Shown here: one piece after another, positions 54,001 through 64,000 of the stretch
How the letters are laid out: every line of letters begins with the position of its first letter
Position numbering within the stretch: position 1 is the stretch's first letter
Assembly (NCBI GenBank): GCA_964016885.1
Contig: OZ024753.1
Location: 19,530,001-19,594,000 of the forward strand
DNA: 64,000 nucleotides
Direction of reading: 5' to 3'
DNA from: Eledone cirrhosa
Lineage: Eukaryota
The notes under the pieces: model-generated
Seen by the model: the letters and a program-made list of their open reading frames with translations, nothing else
What the model was told of the DNA's origin: nothing
The model's database searches: none
Program-made: the position numbers and the translations under genes

Positions 54001-54042
54001 AAAACTGTACTGAGACCAACTATTTTAGTGTAGTACACTGTA
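1..54042. repeat. 32-bp tandem satellite array, open at the left window edge
   Basis: Continuous repeats of ACTGAGAC(T/C)AACTATGACAGTAGTAACACTGT with scattered substitutions and occasional 28-33 bp indel monomers. I saw no foreign insertion or orientation switch. The last degenerate unit ends ...TTAGTGTAGTACACTGTA near 54042. Confidence 0.99.
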
Positions 54043-54083
54043 TGTGTTCTATAACTGGCAGTGGCACACACACGCTAACTTTG

Positions 54084-54487
54084 CTAGTCACCAGTTGATA
54101 GGCAACCAGAAAGAAACCAAATTGCATGTGTCCAATCACCAAAGAGCCGAACTCCTACTGTCATCGCTTTCATCTCTCTCGCCCTCTCCATTTCTCTGTA
54201 TTCTGAATAAACGGGTCCCACGTGATGGCCATCCCACAGCCCCGGAGGACAGAATAGAAACGGCGTTTCCTCGGAGGAAGGTAAGGTGATGCACTTGAAG
54301 AGCCATTCCAGGTCGCGAGGCTCACACTTGCGGCTGGCCAGCTCAGCGTCTACGGTGGTATGTAGGTAGGTAGCCCTAGGGTCAAGGACACGAGATGACT
54401 CCACTGCCAAGCGCACGACCGTAAACCTGTCGGAGAACGACTGGTACTTGGAAAGTTTGCCCTCCACTGTTCGAAGTGCAGCAGAAC
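54084..54487 (-). CDS. Putative coding exon of an unidentified protein (possibly a terminal exon)
   Basis: GC-richer island with a stop-free minus frame (SAALRTVEGKLSKYQSFSDRFTVVRLAVESSRVLDPRATYLHTTVDAELASRKCEPRDLEWLFKCITLP...STGD*). It is preceded by AT-rich sequence ending ACTAACCCAG (acceptor CAG at 54490-54488). No family recognised, and the 3' boundary is uncertain because internal GT donors are possible. Confidence 0.5.
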
Positions 54488-54526
54488 CTGGGTTAGTATT
54501 TTATTACATTTTGTGGCAAAGAATTG

Positions 54527-54622
54527 CGTCCCTTTACGTTCAGTGTTCAAATCACGGAGAGATTAGCTTTGCCTTTGTTCATAGCGGGGTTGTTAAAATA
54601 GAGTATCTCAATGGCACCAGTA
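54527..54622 (+). mobile_element. Old degenerate fragment of the tRNA-derived SINE family
   Basis: CGTCCCTTTACGTTCAGTGTTCAAATCACGG...CTTTGCCTTTG...GGGGTTGTTAAAATAGAGTA aligns by eye to the B-box and core of the SINE at 54691-54874. Confidence 0.7.
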
Positions 54623-54690
54623 ACATATCTCCTCCTACCAAATTGTTGGCCTGGAACCAACATCAGAAACCATTATTCGATTATATTAAT

Positions 54691-54874
54691 GGCGGTGGAT
54701 TGGCAGTATCAGTAGAGGGTTGGACGCTATGCTTTCCAGCATAGTTACGTCCCTTTACGATCTGAGTTCAAATCCCGCCGAGGTTGACTTTGCCTTTCAT
54801 CCTTACGGAGTCGATAAAATAAAGTACCAGTAATGAACTGGGTAATTGCTCGCCTTGTGCCTAAAGTAGAAACA
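54691..54874 (+). mobile_element. tRNA-derived SINE, full length, octopod-like family
   Basis: GGCGG start, A-box-like TGGCAGTATCAG, B-box GAGTTCAAATCC and core GACTTTGCCTTTCATCC...GTCGATAAAATAAAGTACCAG. Flanked by ATTAAT direct repeats (54685-54690, 54875-54880). Second copy at 62205-62383. Family assignment is from recollection of octopus SINEs. Confidence 0.9.
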
Positions 54875-55167
54875 ATTAATGTTTTTAAAACACGTTGGAT
54901 TTCATGAACTACTCTCATCATTAGTATAGGTCTATCATCATGTAGAATAGCAAAACTGACGACATTCCAGCTGACTGAGAAAAAAAAGCATTATCGCCAT
55001 AACTGGATAATCACAATAAGTAGATTCAATGACCATTATTAAATAATATTGAACAACCAAGAAAAAGACATAGAAAAGACTTGTAAATAGATATATATCG
55101 CTAAGTATATATTAACATATGAGAAAGATAAAGTAAAGGATCATCTGCCCATACGCAAAATACTGTG

Positions 55168-55578
55168 AATTACCTCATAGCGGCAAATGGCAACTTCTTT
55201 TCCCGCCTTTTAGGTGTATTTACCCTATTTTATGAGTTAATTTATAGCATCTCTGTAAAAGAGCATACCTTCCTTTACATTAATACTATATTCCTAGCGC
55301 TTCAAAATGTAGTCCCTCGTCTATGTATATCGTCTCTATGCCTGCCCGGCTGTTGTTTAGCTATTTAGTTTAAAACAAGACCGGAGAGTTGTCAAGGTCC
55401 CAAAGTTCCTAGCCGATATCTGAAAGATGTGAGGCTCAATTCCTCATAGCAGCCGACGGCAACTTCGTTTTCCGTCTTTTAAAGGTCTTCACTCTATTTC
55501 ATAAACTATTTTATAGCATCTCTGCGCATGAGCACTTCATCCTTTATATTACTTCTATGATCTCAGCACTTCAAATGA
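55168..55578. repeat. Diverged ~140-bp direct duplication (55168-55309 and 55438-55578)
   Basis: Shared blocks CCTCATAGC, GGCAACTTC, TTTATAGCATCTCTG, GAGCA, TCCTTTA and CTTCAAA occur in the same order, about 270 bp apart. Confidence 0.8.
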
Positions 55579-55719
55579 CATATTCAGCATATATTACTTG
55601 TTCCCTGGAACACAAGGGACAGAATATCATACTTTTAGGTGTCTTAGCATCACTAAATTTCCAAGTGAATGTAAGACACACACACGAACATTATAGGAAA
55701 CGAGATAATGTTGAATATC

Positions 55720-57416
55720 CAGTTCCCGTTAAAAATTGTAAGGTTTGCCAGTTCCCGTTTAAAATTGTAAGGTTTGCCTGTACCGGTTTAAATTGTAAGG
55801 TTTGACAGTACCGGTTTAAATTGTAAGGTTTGCCAGTACCGGTTTAAATTGTAAGGTTTGCCAGTACCGGTTTAAATTGTAAGGTTTGCCAGTACCGGTT
55901 TAAATTGTAAGGTTTGCCAGTACCGGGTTAAATTGTAAGGTTTGCCAGCACCCGTTTAAAATTGTAAGGTTTGACATTACCGGTTTAAATTGTAAGATTT
56001 GACAGTACCCGTTTAAATTGTAAGGTTTGCCAGCACCCGTTTAAATTGTAAGGTTTGCCAGTACCGGTTTAAAATTGTAAGGTTTGACAGTACCCGTTTA
56101 AATTGTAAGGTTTGCCAGTACCCGTTTAAAATTGTAAGGTTTGCCAGTACCGGTTTAAATTGTAAGGTTTGACAGCACCGGTTTAAAATTGTAAGGTTTG
56201 ACAGTACCGGTTTAAAATTGTAAGGTTTGACAGTACCGGTTTAAAATTGTAAGGTTTGCCAGCACCCGTTTAAATTGTAAGGTTTGCCAGTACCCGTTTA
56301 AAATTGTAAGGTTTGCCAGTACCGGTTTAAATTGTAAGGTTTGACAGTGCCGGTTTAAAATTGTAAGGTTTGACAGTACCGGTTTAATATTGTAAGGTTT
56401 GACAGTACCGGTTTAATATTGTAAGGTGTGACAGTAGCAGTTTAAATTGATAGTTTGTCAGTACCGGTTTAAATTGTAAGTTTTTAGAGTACCGGTTTAA
56501 ATTGTAAGGTTTGCCAGTACCGGTTTAAAATTGTAAGGTTTGCCAGTTCCCGTTTAAATTGTAAGGTTTGCCAGTACCGGTTTAAATTGTAAGGTTTGCC
56601 AGCACCGGTTTAAAATTGTAAGGTTTGACAGTACCGGTTTAAAATTGTAATGTTTGACAGTACCGGTTTAAATTGTAAGGTTTGCCAGCACCGGTTTAAT
56701 ATTGTAAGGTTTGACAGTACCGGTTTAAATCGTAAGGTTTGCCAGTACCGGTTTAAAATTGTAAGGTTTGACAGTACCGGTTGAAAATTGTAAGGTTTGA
56801 GAGTACCAGTTTAAAATTGTAAGGTTTGACAGTACCGGTTTAAATTGTAAGGTCTGACAGTACCGGTTGAAAATTGTATGGTTTAAGAGTACCCGTTTAA
56901 AAGTGTAAGGTTTGCCAGTTCCCGTTTAAATTGTAAGGTTTGCCAGTACCGGTTTAAAATTGAAAGATTTGACAGTACCGGTTTAAATTGTAAGGTTTAA
57001 CAGTACCGGTTTAAATTGTAAGGTTTGCCAGCACCCGTTTAAAATTGTAAGGTTTGACAGTACCGGTTTAAGTTGTAAGGATTGCCAGCACCGGTTTAAC
57101 ATTGTAAGGTTTGACAGTACCGGTTTAAATTGTAAGGTTTGACAATACCTGTTTAAATTGTAAGGTTTGACAGTACCGTTTAAAATTGTAAGGGTTGCCA
57201 GTACCCGTTTAAAATTGTAAGGATTTCCAGTACCGGTTTTAAATTGTAAGATTTGCCAGCACCGGTTTAATATTGTAGGTTTGACAGTATCGCTTTAAAA
57301 TTGTAAAATTTGACAGTACCCGTTTAAAATTGTAAGGTTTGAGAGTACCGGTTTAAAATTGTAAGGTTTGCCAGAACCCATTTAAAAATGAAAGGTTTCC
57401 TTGTACCCGTTTATAA
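55720..57416. repeat. 28/29-bp minisatellite, about 60 units
   Basis: Unit CAGTACCGGTTTAAA(A)TTGTAAGGTTTG(C/A), with period 28 measured at 55806 to 55834. It contains the ACCGGT and TTTAAA palindromes and decays toward the right end. Confidence 0.98.
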
Positions 57417-57666
57417 TTCAAACCTTTCCCAGAACCATACATAAAAGAAAAGTTAAAACGATCGATACGGAAATGCATAATTAGTCTGTTGAAATAGGAG
57501 TAACTTTGAGTTAAACCGCCTTGACAACACAAAATCTTGATACTTGAGATTCTAGAACAAAATAAAATTAAATTAAGGAATCCATCGGAACCATTTTCAT
57601 AATCTTTTTCCCTTTGAGGATATTTTGTGAATTTGAGAAACAAATTATTAACTTGAAATCCTGACA

Positions 57667-57812
57667 TACGAGGGTAGGCTGAAAAGTTCATAGGCTGACT
57701 ACGAATGCAGTAATTTCAACTCTTTTTATTAATAACTGCATTATTTATTTCTAGGGCCAATGTTGAAAAGTAAACCTCATTTGGTCATTCCATAAGAGAT
57801 AGTTGGTCAGCC
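57667..57812. mobile_element. Tc1/mariner-type non-autonomous remnant
   Basis: TACGAGGGTAGGCTGAAAAGTTCATAGGCTGAC resembles a mariner TIR (TA + CGAGGG...CTGAAAAGT). Only a short complementary remnant, GTCAGCC (57806-57812), is left on the right. Confidence 0.6.
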
Positions 57813-58489
57813 AGGTTTAAAGTTGCCAAAGTAAACGGTATATCAGGACGGCACTGATATGATTCTATCAGGAGTTACGGGTCCTTACAGATATATAGCC
57901 GGGCTTCTATACCTCAAAGCAATGTGTCATTCCCGCCACGAATCTCAGGGCTTCCCTATGACTGTAATAAAGCCCAGTTTAAATAAAATTTACTTTGCAC
58001 CTGACAGGTAATATATATTTCCCACCGCTCATTGAAGTTTCTTCAAGTCATCGTTTCCATTACTAATTATTCCTGGTTCTAATTTTTCTTGGTAAGACTA
58101 TGTACGTTTAAGCTGACTCTCGTAGATGCCAGAGCTTTGGTTTTAACTTTAGAGTGGCATGACATGTAATCCTCATGACAAGTTCACTTTCTTTCATTAA
58201 ATATAACTTAATATGGAAAAATCTATTTTCAAAAAACAATATCAAGTATTCTTCAATCGACTTAGTGAGAGATAAAGCTGAGATACTGGAGAAGCCAAAA
58301 TATATAACTGAGGAATATTCTATTAAAAATCTGAAAGTTATGTGTAGTTTGATTAGTAGGATAGTGATAGAAACAGAATGGAAGCAAATTCATACGTTTT
58401 ATACTAAGAATGTACATGTACATATACATATATCATGTACATACACATCGGGTGAGAAATAAATACATACACAAAGAAACACACACACG

Positions 58490-58499
58490 TATATATATA

Positions 58500-58585
<86 letters not shown>

Positions 58586-58586
58586 A

Positions 58587-58675
<89 letters not shown>

Positions 58676-58827
58676 AATATATATATAAGTATATAAATAT
58701 ATATGTATATATATATATATGTATATAAATATATATGTATATAAGTATATAAATATATATGTATATAAATATATATATATATATGTATATAAATACATAC
58801 ATATGTATATATATATATATATATATA
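58490..58827. repeat. (TA)n microsatellite with TATAAA/TATG interruptions
   Basis: Direct reading. Confidence 0.98.
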
Positions 58828-58904
58828 CGTAGGTCCCGGGTTGAGTCGGGGATAACCACAGTAAGTAAGGTACTCAATACATGGCAGAGTAAATTTTTTT
58901 ATTT

Positions 58905-59144
58905 TATAGAAGGAGCTTCCGCATCGACTGCGTCGGCGCACAACGTGTGCGCGCGCGACATGCACCGCACGCTTCGCACCAGATAAATGAACCACTGCTC
59001 GGCGACGGCCCCGTCTCTTCTCAATCGAGTGAGCGAAGAAACTACTCCGTAGTTTCTTCGCTCACTGGATTGCGAAGCGTGCGGTGCATGTCGCGCGCGC
59101 ACACGTTGTGCGCCGATGCAGCCGATGCGGAAGCTCCTTCTATA
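58905..59144. repeat. CpG-rich foldback (palindromic MITE-like) element
   Basis: Left arm 58905-58978 plus 59024-59045 pairs with right arm 59049-59144 (96 bp, 3 mismatches by eye), with loop TCC. The left arm has a 45-nt insertion (58979-59023). Confidence 0.92.
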
Positions 59145-59242
59145 TATATATACATATATTATATATGTATATAAATATATTTCGTTTCTGAATTTGTTTA
59201 GCAAGATTCTTTATCTGAAATCGTGTGTTGAAACCGATATTG

Positions 59243-59561
<319 letters not shown>

Positions 59562-60297
59562 TATAAAGAATTAGTATGTCTACCCACATATATATACAGA
59601 TTTCATACCTATGCTAGCAAATATATGGGTTTTGTCTTAGTAACTTTGTGGTTCAATGCAAGGGGATGCAGAACAATTATATGAAAGACGTAAAATAAGA
59701 AAATTATAAAGATTTACTTACGAAAATTTCACTCCAACTAATTACTTTCTGAAAGGGAATAAACATGGTCCGATCGGAACAACATGGTGAAAAATCCTTT
59801 CCTCATCAGGGAGGTCTATTCTCAGCTAAGTTTCCTGGCAATGCGTGGACACAGGGAACTTATACAAAAATAATTCAGTGGATGGAAAAAAGCAAGCGAG
59901 GACTAAATTCCAGGACATTGAAAAAATCACTGCCTACTTGGTCGGTGGCAAGTTCAAAAGAATCGAGCACGTGACATCGAGGTTAATCAGTGAGGAGTGG
60001 GGTGCTAATAAGACACAGTTGCCTGACTATTACTATGAACCATAGTAGTAGTTTTGGCAAATGTTTGCTCAACAAAATAATTTCGAGATAATTATAAAGA
60101 ATTAGTATATCTACCAACAAATATATACAGATGCATACCTATGCTAGCAAATATATAGGTTCTTTCTTGGTAACTTTGTGGTTCAATGCAAGGGGATGCA
60201 GAACAATTATATGAAAGACGTAAAATAAGAAAATTATAAAAATTAACTTACTTACTAAAATTTCACTCCAACTAATTAGTTCCTGAAAGGGAATAAA
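59562..60297 (-). mobile_element. Retrozyme-like / Penelope-dependent non-autonomous element (~1.4 tandem monomers)
   Basis: ~200-bp direct repeats (59562-59763 and 60093-60297, offset ~531-534) around a unique core, bounded by (TA)n on both sides. A hammerhead fold spans the repeat/core junction on the minus strand. Confidence 0.65.
59732..59813 (-). ncRNA. Type I hammerhead ribozyme fold, probably partly decayed
   Basis: Minus strand reads stem I CUCC, CUGAUGA (59809-59803), stem II GAAAGG...CCUUUC with an internal UCCGAUCGGA palindrome, GAAA (59749-59746), GUAAUUAG, UU^, GGAG. The second repeat copy has a perfect CUAAUUAG palindrome in stem III but GGAA instead of GAAA. Confidence 0.7.
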
Positions 60298-60631
60298 TAT
60301 ATATGTATGTATATATATATATATATATATCTAAAAATATATGTATGTATATATATATATATATAAATATATATGTATATATATATATATATGTATATAA
60401 ATATATAGGTATATATATATATGTATATAAATATATATGTATATATATATATGTATATAAATTTATATATATATATATTTATATGTGTATATATATATAT
60501 ATGTATATAAATATATATATGTATATATATATATATGTATATATATTACATATGTATATATATATATGTATATAAATATATATATATACATATGTAATAT
60601 ATATACATATATATGTATACATATATATATT

Positions 60632-60681
<50 letters not shown>

Positions 60682-60761
60682 AATATATATGTATATATCT
60701 ATGTATATAAATATATATGTACATATATATGTATATAAATATATATGTACATATATATGTA
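60298..60761. repeat. Compound (TA)n / TATATG / TATAAA microsatellite
   Basis: Direct reading. Confidence 0.97.
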
Positions 60762-61371
60762 TGTCAGGTCACCAGTTGGTGCTACTGGTAACATGTATCC
60801 CAGTACAACCTGTCTCATGGTCGGGTCGTTGGCGACTAAACTGGCAACCCCACCAAGGTTTCTTGGTGAGGAGGATGACTTTGGACATCCTGCAGGACTA
60901 AAAACAAAACCTGTCAAAGGGCAAAGGAGCTCTTAAGAGTCAATGGCCATCCAAAATCACCGGGAGAGATGACCCCTTACCCTTTGTCAAGGCAGAATTC
61001 TAGGAGAAGGAAAACTCTGATATAACACCTGCAACCCTGATGGTATCCAATGATGTTGACTTGTTCTTCTTTTTGGTAAATATCATCTTGGTTAAGAGAG
61101 TGGGACTGGCTTTGTGCAGTGCCTTTGCTCACTATAAAAGCTTCACGGCACAGGCATTGCTTTATATCTGGAGATCTCTCTGCACTTGTCGTCACATGGT
61201 ACCATGGGCCCAACACTATGTGTCAATAATTGTCACAAGTGTAGTCTTTGTACCAGAGTTTTCAAGTCGCTGGCTGGACTAAAAAGTCACACTCGTTCAG
61301 CGCATCAGTAGGGGTTCTCCTACATGGATATAAAGTAGTGGCCGTACTCGAAAACGAGTTGGCAGCCACCA
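60762..61371 (+). mobile_element. Internally deleted RTE-clade LINE derivative (5'UTR joined to 3' end)
   Basis: RTE 5'UTR-like motif CTAGGAGAAGGAAAACTCTGA near 61000-61020. C-terminal C2H2 finger [23 protein letters not shown] (61240-61311), of the type found at RTE/BovB ORF ends. 3' hairpin ACTCG-AAAA-CGAGT just before the (TA)n tail. No endonuclease or RT seen. Confidence 0.75.
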
Positions 61372-61406
61372 TATAAATATATATGTATATATGTATATGT
61401 ATATAC

Positions 61407-61439
<33 letters not shown>

Positions 61440-61566
61440 TAAATATATATGTATATACATATATATGTATATATATATGTATATAAATATATAGGTATAT
61501 ATATATATGTATATAAATATATATTATATATATGTATATAAATTTATATATATATATATATATATA
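61372..61566. repeat. Compound (TA)n microsatellite
   Basis: Direct reading. Confidence 0.97.
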
Positions 61567-62841
61567 TATTATATTTAGAGTTTAAACTCAGTCATTTACA
61601 ATTAATCAGCTCAAAGAAAGAAGCATTTCCGAGCAGTGAAATACAAGTTAATATATATTAATATATGCTAAACACATACGTGTTTGTATTGTAAGAGACA
61701 AAGTTAGCTAGAATGAAATAAACTAATTAAAATGAATACAATTTGTCTGTCTCGATAGACAAGCATATATTGGCAAAAGCCGTGATTCCTGGACAAATTT
61801 AAATTTCAAAATCCAAACCTGCTCCGTAGATGAATTTGAACTTCGAAACCTAAATATATTTCGCAACGATGGTATAAAAATTGAAATATAAAAAAATTGA
61901 AATATACAAAGTGAACTATTCAAATCTTCTGTTCTTATCAACAGGAATCCAGTAAAATTAGTACATTTCACCTCCAAAAATTTTGCAGGACTGATTCACA
62001 CGTGGTATAATCAGCTATACTAGCCATCCCATACTCCCGGTGCTAGAAATAACAGCCGTTTATATGGGATTAAAAATTATTCTACGGTTAAGGAGCAATA
62101 ATATTATATTATATTTAGAGTTTAAACTTAAAGTCATTTACAATTAATCAGCTCAAAGAAAGAAGCATTTCCGAGCAGTGAAATACAAGTTAATATATAT
62201 TAATTGTTTCTACTTTAGGCACAAGGCCAGCAATTACCCAGTGCATTACTGGTACTTTATTTTATCTACCCGTAAGGATGAAAGGCAAAGTCAACCTCGG
62301 CGGGATTTGAACTCAGATCGTAAAGGGACGTAACTATGCTGGAAAGCATGGCGTCCGACCCTCTACCAATACTGCCAATCCACATATTAATATATGATAA
62401 ACACATACGTGTTTGTATTGTAAGAGACACAATTAGCTAGAATGAAATAAACTAATTAAAATGAATACAATTTGTCTGTCTCGATATAAGTCAATAAAGA
62501 CAAGCTTATATTGGCAAAAGCCGTGCTTCCTGGACAAATTTAAATTTCAAAATCCAAACCTGCTCCGTAGATGAATTTGAACTTCGAAACCTAATTTTTA
62601 ATCCGATATAAACGGCTGTTATTTCTAGCACCGGGACTATGGGATGGCTCGTATAGCTGATTATACCACGTGTGAATCAGTCCTGCAAAATTTTTGGAGG
62701 CGAAATGTACTAATTTTACTGGATTCCTGTTGATAAGCACAGAAGATTTGAATATTTCACTTTGTATATTTCAATTTTTTTATATTTCAATTTTTATACC
62801 ATCGTTGCAAAACATATTTAGGTTTCGAAGTTCAAATTCAT
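61566..62841. repeat. ~540-bp tandem duplication with an inverted segment in the second copy
   Basis: 61566-61853 is repeated directly at ~62106-62594 (interrupted by a SINE). 61830-62079 is repeated as its reverse complement at 62592-62841. The ORF track gives the same peptide on opposite strands (61723..61977 minus, 62694..63023 plus). Confidence 0.92.
62205..62383 (-). mobile_element. tRNA-derived SINE (same family as 54691-54874), 5' end 4 nt short
   Basis: About 8 differences in 180 nt from the first copy. 8-bp TSD ATATTAAT (62197-62204, 62384-62391). The empty site is preserved in the paralogous copy near 61650-61670. Confidence 0.93.
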
Positions 62842-63105
62842 GTTTTCTTTCCCTCTATATTTCCTTCTTCCCCCCATCTCTTCCTAGTCCCTCCACCCCA
62901 GAACTCCTTCCCTGTCTTATTTTCACCTTTTCGCCTACCTCGATGCAGCCCATCGGTCCTCTGTTGCCTCAGTACCCCCACCCTCCAAATTTTAAGATAG
63001 AATTGGCCGATTACGCTTTTTAATGCAGATGTGTTAGACCCCAGTAAATTGTTTTATTTCTGGTTGCTGCTCCATTTCTGTGGTTTCTAAGTTTCTTAGT
63101 GTTAC

Positions 63106-63185
63106 TTTTGTATTAGTATTTTGTATTAGTATTTTGAATTAATATCTTGTATTAGTATTTTTGTAGTAGTATTTTAGTATTTTTG
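63106..63185. repeat. 13-bp degenerate tandem repeat (TTTTGTATTAGTA), about 6 copies
   Basis: Direct reading. Confidence 0.8.
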
Positions 63186-63698
63186 TTCTCAACTTATTAA
63201 CCTGTCATTGTAAGATAGCATTGGCTGATTACTAACTATTTATAACAGTGGTGTTAGACCCCTGTAGAGCCGGCTTCATAAAATTCTTTCACTACAATCT
63301 CGTATTTAGTATTTTTCTCCACCTATTAATCTTTTCTATAGCTTAGCAATACCAATGAGAGATTTGTTGATTGTGGAAATGGAGTAGTAACCAGAAATTG
63401 TTCTTTTAATATATTTATTTCCTTATTTTTATAATGTTTTTTTTTACTCCCTTTCGATTTACCTATCCTTTCAACTCCCCCCTCCCCTTCTCCGGTACAC
63501 TTTTTTCGACTTTCTATTCATTATCCTTAGAATCTGGTGTATAGATTTCACTTTCAACGCTTGATTGAGTTTCCCCCACTCCCTCTTTCTTCAACCGGCA
63601 AGTTGAGCCACCCCTACCTCCAACCAAATGCAACACATTTTTACAAGACATTTTTGACCAGTCCTTTTGAGAATTACTATCTTCCCATATAAGGAATT

Positions 63699-63794
63699 AC
63701 CCCCTGAGAAGTTCGGCTATTTATTTAACAGGCTAAATATTCTTATTTAGTCCAGAATTAGCCGTCGAAACGGCTTGAGCTCTGCCGTCGGGGT
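63699..63794 (+). ncRNA. Type I hammerhead ribozyme fold with variant core
   Basis: Stem I ACCCC (63699-63703)/GGGGU (63790-63794); core CUGAGAAG (63704-63711); long stem II CGGCUA/UAGCCG enclosing GGCUAAAUA-UUCU-UAUUUAGUC; GAAA (63767-63770); stem III ACGGC/GCCGU with loop UUGAGCUCU; GUC^ at 63789. Confidence 0.75.
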
Positions 63795-63804
63795 CATACG
63801 TGTT

Positions 63805-63806
<2 letters not shown>

Positions 63807-63869
<63 letters not shown>

Positions 63870-63880
63870 GTATATATATA
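63807..63880. repeat. (TA)n microsatellite
   Basis: Direct reading. Confidence 0.97.
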
Positions 63881-64000
63881 TCCTCTTTGACGCTACATTT
63901 CTCTAGATGCTAATTAGTTACATAACAATTCACAAATATATATATATATACACTATTTCTATGGCACAATGCCCCCAATTGAATTCCATCCTAATTCCAC

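Follow-up and report, generated by a model that had tools for sequence, protein, structure and literature searches.

An inherited C3xA8 hammerhead core in a truncated Hydra-clade Penelope-like element of Eledone cirrhosa

Close to the end of a 64,000-nucleotide stretch of the Eledone cirrhosa genome (the window) lies a hammerhead-like sequence in which C at position 3 of the core faces A at position 8. Such a core is one change away from the published compensated U3-A8 core and also one change away from CUGANGA, and it raises the question of whether a single copy has decayed or whether the element has spread in this state and, if so, whether its RNA was cut. The window, its paralogues and the ends of short insertions point to a type I hammerhead in the pseudo-LTR of a truncated Hydra-clade element, with C3xA8 present in at least 1,227 copies and, on balance, probably weakened rather than dead.

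The hammerhead fold and its host element

The three helices are arranged in the type I order around the core and, as the earlier note had read, they are in register together with GAAA and the GUC triplet, with a palindrome in loop III and 12 bases between the motif and the (TA)n tract (Table 1). U4 G5 A6, A9, the G10.1-C11.1 pair, G12 A13 A14, A15.1-U16.1 and an NUH triplet are all present, with the same majority letters in nine subfamilies. The G10.1-C11.1 pair is followed by an internal loop and then by stem II. Folding alone gives weak support. The minimum-energy fold of 63699-63794 by itself is a competing one, with the hammerhead helices at a pair probability of about 0.4, and the fold of 63690-63800 has z = -1.64, with 11 of 200 shuffles as good. 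A covariance-model search, proposed earlier as a check, likewise gave nothing, no Rfam hammerhead family having a match in the window (E up to 1) or in 63600-63810 (E up to 10).

It is on the family that the reality of the motif rests. A 21-base core stretch has 363 exact copies in the genome compared with 0 for the reversed pattern, so the motif is not due to chance. Among the 101 copies that fitted a subfamily rule, representing nine subfamilies, 6 of 50 positions in the helices, core and palindrome are variable compared with 56 of 85 in the loops and flanks (p = 5e-10), conservation at stem I, stem II and GAAA being inflated by overlap with the search anchors. The anchors mostly spare the palindrome and the 3′ arm of stem I and of stem III. 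None of the 8 stem III positions and none of the 6 palindrome positions vary among the nine subfamilies, and within the core only positions 3 and 8 differ. In the distant subfamily F2 a G-C pair of stem II has become A-U through change on both sides, as seen at one locus, L148. This locus (G000:C4:213650500-213655000) has the same fold with G8, and C3 in one arm and U3 in the other.

The palindromic loop III had been taken as a sign that the hammerhead acts as a dimer. Cofolding of two copies gives -26.9 kcal/mol compared with -6.5 kcal/mol for one, and from this modelling a dimer would be possible; it is not forced as in minimal Penelope hammerheads, helix III being a stable helix of 5 pairs that can form within one molecule.

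Table 1. Positions of the hammerhead, its parts and the surrounding element in the window
Feature	Position	Strand	Basis or comment
5′-truncated copy of a putative Hydra-clade Penelope-like element, 3′ UTR and pseudo-LTR	62843..63808	+	84-90% identity to 3′ ends of longer copies
Type I hammerhead fold	63699..63794	+	helix, core and palindrome constraint among subfamilies, sequence, folding
Stem I	63699-63703 paired with 63790-63794	+	sequence
Core strand C3 U4 G5 A6 G7 A8 A9 G10.1, C3 facing A8	63704..63711	+	sequence; variable position 7 fixes the register; C3 63704, A8 63709, G10.1 63711
Stem II, 6 pairs	63714-63719 / 63759-63764	+	39-nt loop II with inner hairpin 63731-63752; C11.1 63766
GAAA core strand (G12-A15.1)	63767..63770	+	majority letters the same in 9/9 subfamilies
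Stem III, 63771-63774 / 63784-63787	63771..63787	+	9-nt loop III, 6-base palindrome 63777-63782, possible dimer contact
GUC triplet, with cleavage predicted between C17 (63789) and 63790	63787..63790	+	5′ ends of paralogous short insertions pile up there; U16.1 63788
19 nt after the cut, ending at the family's first 3′ end	63790..63808	+	putative reverse-transcription start
(TA)n tract, insertion target	63807..63881	.	most paralogues enter (TA)n directly or after the tail

A DNA search of the 3.0-Gb genome gave 1,980 first-look candidates, 40 of which were scored. The window copy matches paralogues from 62843, consistent with the left edge suggested earlier, to about 63808-63809, and its identity to copies bearing a reverse transcriptase (RT) and GIY-YIG extends over some 950-1,000 bases of their 3′ ends. 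With L067 as reference it begins about 80 nt past the stop codon, and so is a non-coding 3′ remnant; it has no coding sequence and is without the 78-nt tail. The element body that the earlier note had tentatively placed at 62842-63700 corresponds to the 3′ untranslated part (62843-63700), the coding region lying upstream in longer copies. There the expected RT and GIY-YIG frames are indeed found, in support of a Penelope-like element. The single frame with an RT and, at its C terminus, a GIY-YIG that is looked for in endonuclease-bearing (EN+) Penelope-like elements is present in paralogues. In L203 an unbroken RT and GIY-YIG frame of 786 codons, stop to stop, lies between two hammerheads; the unit is 3,118 nt from cut to cut, full units being about 3.1 kb from hammerhead to hammerhead. 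YRDD and VIYQC...AYIG can be read by eye in this frame, and RWR and DKT in the RT, the CxCX5C linker, CxxC, and CxH round a conserved E and N are all there. Pfam and PDB searches of the family frame gave no match, and Atlas feature neighbours at 0.96-0.99 include clusters with RVT_1 or GIY-YIG in 18-77% of members, which is a lead only.

The family has pseudo-LTRs, tandem and inverted copies and an optional tail. Its 3′ ends fall 19 and 97 nt past the predicted cut, the window copy being of the 19 type, and most paralogues run into (TA)n either directly or after the 78-nt tail. They are often head-to-head pairs with one 3′ end of each kind. From these motifs and the (TA)n target, rather than from a tree, the family is assigned to the Hydra clade. 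A retrozyme, the other identity put forward earlier, was rejected, as the unit is a coding 3.1-kb element and the copies are dispersed, not non-coding and in tandem.

Upstream, window positions 1-54023 are a satellite array with a 32-bp unit in about 1,690 copies, followed by a 29-bp array at 55719-57418. An inverted pair from another repeat family (61577-62120 and 62400-62842) adjoins the element and is split at about 62190-62385 by a piece that we take to be tRNA-type SINE-like. Another CUGAUGAG core, probably the other hammerhead of the earlier note, is found at 59809 on the minus strand (about 59720-59820); its fold is no better than shuffles and it has no sequence likeness to 63699-63794. 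That the two are unrelated, as had been claimed, agrees with the lack of any blastn match better than E 0.34 against the rest of 54001-63600.

Core states across the genome and the order of the subfamilies

Cores with identical flanks were tabulated genome-wide, as the earlier note had advised, giving 3,676 U3-A8, 1,227 C3xA8, 38 U3.G8 and 4 C3-G8, all of them lower bounds because subfamilies with other flanks (C0, F2) are missed; the reversed-pattern controls gave 0. The Watson-Crick 3-8 pair that the window lacks is thus found as U3-A8 in the majority, 3,718 of the 4,945 cores have a 3-8 pair with U.G included, and the canonical CUGANGA accounts for only four. The odd C3xA8 core is inherited and is not due to decay of the window copy. 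The sharing of one core by 1,227 copies rules out both single-copy decay and the earlier suggestion of inactivation after insertion, and bears out the alternative that the change is fixed in the family. Comparison with CUGANGA alone had been too narrow, the nearest reference state being U3-A8. A canonical parent family was rejected, as C3-G8 cores in this flank context number only four. When CUGANGA was sought upstream of the 3′ half, 112 matches came up; among the 100 listed about 10 are in register, and in most, unrelated sequence adjoins a truncated copy. Nor is there support for activation through A-to-I editing of A8, DNA copies with G8 making up 4 of 1,231 C3 cores, which is no excess.

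The change had been ascribed either to loss of N7 or to G8A. Among the paralogues position 7 reads G, A, U or C and position 8 stays A, so that the A at position 8 stands and the loss of N7 does not. A shifted register, in which N7 is lost, the G in seventh place acts as G8 and an extra A precedes G10.1, is on these grounds extremely improbable. It could draw on the G that occupies the seventh place in nearly all C3 copies listed and on the extra base between 9 and 10.1 that the available part of PMC4209133 describes as common in Penelope hammerheads; the same G is seen in U3 copies, though, the place may also be A, U or C and so behaves as N7, and no change in length is seen.

As C3 lengthens a run of C, it favours a slipped helix that would bury the core and the cut site. 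The median probability of this helix, computed for 79 of the 101 subfamily-assigned copies, is 0.50 in C1 and 0.67 in C2, the C3xA8 groups, compared with 0.02-0.18 in the U3 groups, and two F2 copies, one of them canonical, also reach 0.60.

The coding-DNA tree, built from the last 600 coding bases of 36 copies with the hammerhead core outside the alignment, is a ladder of old U3 copies, C1 (the window's subfamily), C2 and young U3 copies. The trees took only copies passing length filters (66, 32, 90 and 36 rows), one of them being thinned within L002-L030 from 117 to 90 rows in all. A single clade of U3 cores is rejected by the AU test (p = 1e-13) for a group that was named after the tree had been seen. 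Mean within-group divergence is 10.4% in old U3-A8 (9 copies), 6.4% in C1 (11) and 3.9% in young U3 (12), and the longest unbroken frames are those of young U3 copies. Resting on these divergences, the order in time would be old U3, C3 and then young U3. An outgroup tree with other Penelope families had its root within the C3 copies and drew a long-branch warning, for which this rooting was dropped; the very young sister family was set aside as an outgroup for the motif, its hammerhead being different and minimal. Under either root, the sequences place C3xA8 between two U3-A8 groups, as a state carried by copying masters. The paired U3-A8 core of the youngest, coding-intact group suggests that selection still favours cutting. 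Against a weakened core, 1,227 copies over two successive subfamilies would be a long stay for a harmful state.

Other hammerhead-bearing sequences were met in the same genome. The sister family (L080, L110; G000:C2:215402938-215407600) is Penelope-like, and 150 of its 150 scored GIY-YIG matches are 100% identical, many in 832-codon frames; by eye, its 3′ end has a minimal, hammerhead-like motif in which position 4 is C and helix III is palindromic. L012 and L024 (minus 2770, plus 1156) hold a different hammerhead family that also has the U3-A8 core. L041 (minus 1270) and L044 (minus 491) belong to an abundant-looking type I family in which one copy has the canonical core and another C3xA8, and related sequence recurs among the matches of the CUGANGA search.

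Short insertions that begin at the predicted cut

If RNA of the family was cut, short copies might be expected to begin at the predicted cut (+1). A search for post-cut sequence with non-native letters 11-13 nt upstream gave 2,604 matches, the first 100 of which were classed by hand. In 23 of these the native sequence starts at +1. Starts at +2 and +3 number 4 each, 5 are ambiguous at -1/-2, and the eight positions from -3 to -10 hold 12 altogether, a background of 1.5 per position; the remainder are 12 stem III fold-backs, 24 small indels and 16 in which GAAA and stem III are absent through a jump between two hexamer copies. The excess at +1 has a Poisson probability of 1e-19, or 8e-12 for the 16 non-palindromic junctions, with both arms of one insertion included in the counts in several cases. 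The other 7 of the 23 junctions are palindromic and allow a second reading, as -1 ends that meet over a CG overlap. In L284, L285 and L295 the insert runs from +1 to the end of the tail with (TA)n on both sides, and other +1 inserts consist of two arms that meet at +1, with 0-5 additional bases. Neither a full-length insert from +1 nor a +1 arm with a partner arm reaching the core was found among 34 stretches. A second hot spot of 5′ ends is seen in the part of loop II that immediately precedes stem II's 3′ arm, where many head-to-head inserts are truncated (for example L007:1118-1202 and L069:9715-9832).

It would seem likely that the +1 inserts were copied from ribozyme-cut RNA, and that their pile-up records cutting inside the cell. 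An extra G is expected at junctions from capped RNA starts, as in LINE-1, and its presence at only 4 of 31 +1 junctions argues against a capped start. This weighs against taking the +1 ends for a transcription start or a reverse-transcriptase stop, with the ribozyme inactive throughout the family and its fold kept for protein binding. That explanation, which we regard as very unlikely, would account for the scarcity of the canonical core, the alternative reading of the palindromic junctions and the many truncations in loop II, and is in line with the lack of Anolis RNA reads ending at the cut site in the available part of PMC11167929. The peak nevertheless falls on the exact hammerhead bond and remains in the non-palindromic junctions, a stop at helix III would give -2 or -3 ends, and the 3-8 pairing of most cores, U.G counted, speaks against it.

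The flank type of the window was classed in the same manner. Among the first 100 of its 236 matches, 8 (7 loci) start at +1, 4 at +2, 1 at +3, 4 are ambiguous and 18 fall at -3 to -10, 7 of them at -9; the rest are 2 fold-backs, 12 jumps between the hexamers with loss of GAAA and stem III, and 51 indels. The excess at +1 is modest (Poisson p 0.002-0.008). The ratio of +1 to upstream ends is 8:18 for the window flank compared with 16:7 for young U3 (p = 0.01) when matches are counted, and 7:18 compared with 11:7 (p = 0.06) by loci. The window flank is common also to the small subfamily C0, whose few intact copies seen are U3, and of the 7 window-flank +1 loci 3 have the C0 tail and 1 is unplaceable. 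The C2 flank type, which mixes C3 and U3 copies, has +1 starts in 7 of 44 matches, clearly above background, and gives no sign of weakening. One tail variant was found in 20 intact copies with the same flanks, 17 of them C3xA8, 2 C3-G8, 1 G3 and none U3, in a sample for which many C3 copies had been fetched for their core; the other variant is present in 15 of the 15 young U3 copies with a tail. The C3-linked type of flank and tail is seen at six +1 loci (L279, L281, L293, L296, L298 and L299), which makes some cutting in the C3 phase likely.

A mechanism consistent with these ends can be proposed. Downstream of the ribozyme there would be two sites, at either of which the element's protein starts reverse transcription, much as the Anolis element starts at two internal sites that define its tail (PMC11167929, available in part). 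On uncut or re-joined RNA, copying would pass through the hammerhead and give long copies such as that in the window, and on cut RNA it would run off at the 5′ end to give inserts of 19 or 97 nt. As insertion would not need the cut, a master copy bearing the mismatch could keep spreading; according to the same part of PMC11167929, a Penelope hammerhead changed at either 3 or 8 no longer cleaves and keeps insertion in vitro, and the Anolis hammerhead cleaves only with its protein. In the 3-8 mutagenesis covered by the available part of PMC9901934 only the swap of C-G to G-C kept activity, from which low activity is predicted for an unpaired 3-8; rescue by U-A was not seen there, so U3-A8 may itself be slow. 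C3xA8 would then be a weakened core tolerated by the element, whose youngest group has the paired state.

Two further accounts of the C3xA8 core differ in where the activity would lie. In one, the core is dead alone and its RNA is cut in trans by a U3-A8 copy that, paired with it by way of the palindrome in loop III, supplies the core strand. The single 3-8 mutants are inactive in PMC11167929 and PMC9901934, and dimer action is described for Penelope hammerheads in PMC4209133, each as far as the available parts extend; the palindrome and stem III are invariant among the nine subfamilies, two copies as a duplex have far greater stability than one as a hairpin, and U3-A8 copies exceed C3xA8 three to one. 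Even so we consider this unlikely, since a single molecule can form helix III, the C3 groups occupy the trunk of the tree with no U3-A8 group shown to be active at the same time, and the other core letters, which a mere substrate would not need, stay fixed through the C3 phase. In the second account, C3xA8 works fully inside the cell as a natural core, thanks to a C.A wobble or to the element's protein holding the fold. Its fixation in two subfamilies, the six C3-linked +1 loci, the +1 share of the C2 flank and the dependence of the Anolis hammerhead on protein (PMC11167929, in part) would all fit, as would the finding, in the available part of PMC6155905, that the general acid is the ribose 2′-OH at position 8 and not the base. 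The lower +1 share of the window flank than of young U3, the U3 core of the youngest group and the misfold favoured by C3 make it quite unlikely all the same.

A weakened core thus remains the preferred reading. It may also be, as a more tentative and somewhat doubtful proposal, that a core unpaired at 3-8 still cut RNA in cells, with the help of a protein or of a palindrome partner, and that the family would preserve a dated walk from U3-A8 to C3xA8 and back to U3-A8, the cutting of each stage being readable in its share of +1 ends.

Relation to known elements and significance

The clade of the element, hammerheads in pseudo-LTRs and the U3-A8 core are already published. The available part of PMC8557442 (Craig et al, 2021) describes in the Hydra clade the same single frame with an RT and then a C-terminal GIY-YIG, and RWK-like, DKT, CxCX5C, CxxC and CxH motifs common to both. 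It also describes (TA)n targets, copies with a tail in tandem and inverted arrangement, a type I hammerhead near the 3′ end and, in some members, a G10.1-C11.1 pair likewise with an internal loop between it and stem II. In contrast to the CUGANGA found throughout the Hydra hammerheads of its File S2, as far as available, that core makes up 4 of 4,945 in the Eledone family. Loop II is 39 nt here compared with 3-9 in the Hydra clade, loop III 9 compared with 1-3, the tail 78 nt compared with 30-40 and the unit 3.1 kb compared with generally <3 kb.

The U3-A8 hammerheads of Perreault et al (2011; PMC3088659) have the same compensated pair as the majority core of the family, as do the Schistosoma Cercyon elements (Cervera and de la Pena, 2014; PMC4209133). 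An unpaired C facing A in more than 1,000 copies, as in the window's subfamily, is unreported in the available parts of these two papers. Poseidon of Anolis (Frangieh et al, 2024; PMC11167929, in part) likewise has a hammerhead upstream of two reverse-transcription starts that define the tail, and its long copies likewise span both sides of the cut; it belongs to another clade and has a C3-G8 core, and no reads end at its cut whereas genomic 5′ ends pile up at that of the Eledone family. The animal non-LTR retrozymes, in the available part of bioRxiv 10.64898/2026.07.22.740005, have hammerheads likewise tied to Penelope pseudo-LTRs and are tandem non-coding units, in contrast to the truncated piece of a coding element in the window. 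In the literature, of which coverage was incomplete, no lineage with C3xA8 fixed was found, and no Penelope insertions that start at the hammerhead cut.

As for the copy in the window, it is an ordinary relic without coding sequence. The available part of PMC8557442 calls the hammerhead's role in Penelope-like elements that carry an endonuclease unclear, and the family would be a genomic record of cut RNA copied into DNA. It provides natural isoforms of one ribozyme with all four combinations at 3-8, on which the roles of the pair, the protein and the dimer are testable without design. Should C3xA8 cut in cells, working ribozymes would be missed by searches requiring CUGANGA or UUGANAA; if it does not, the element would have been able to make more than 1,000 copies with its ribozyme off.
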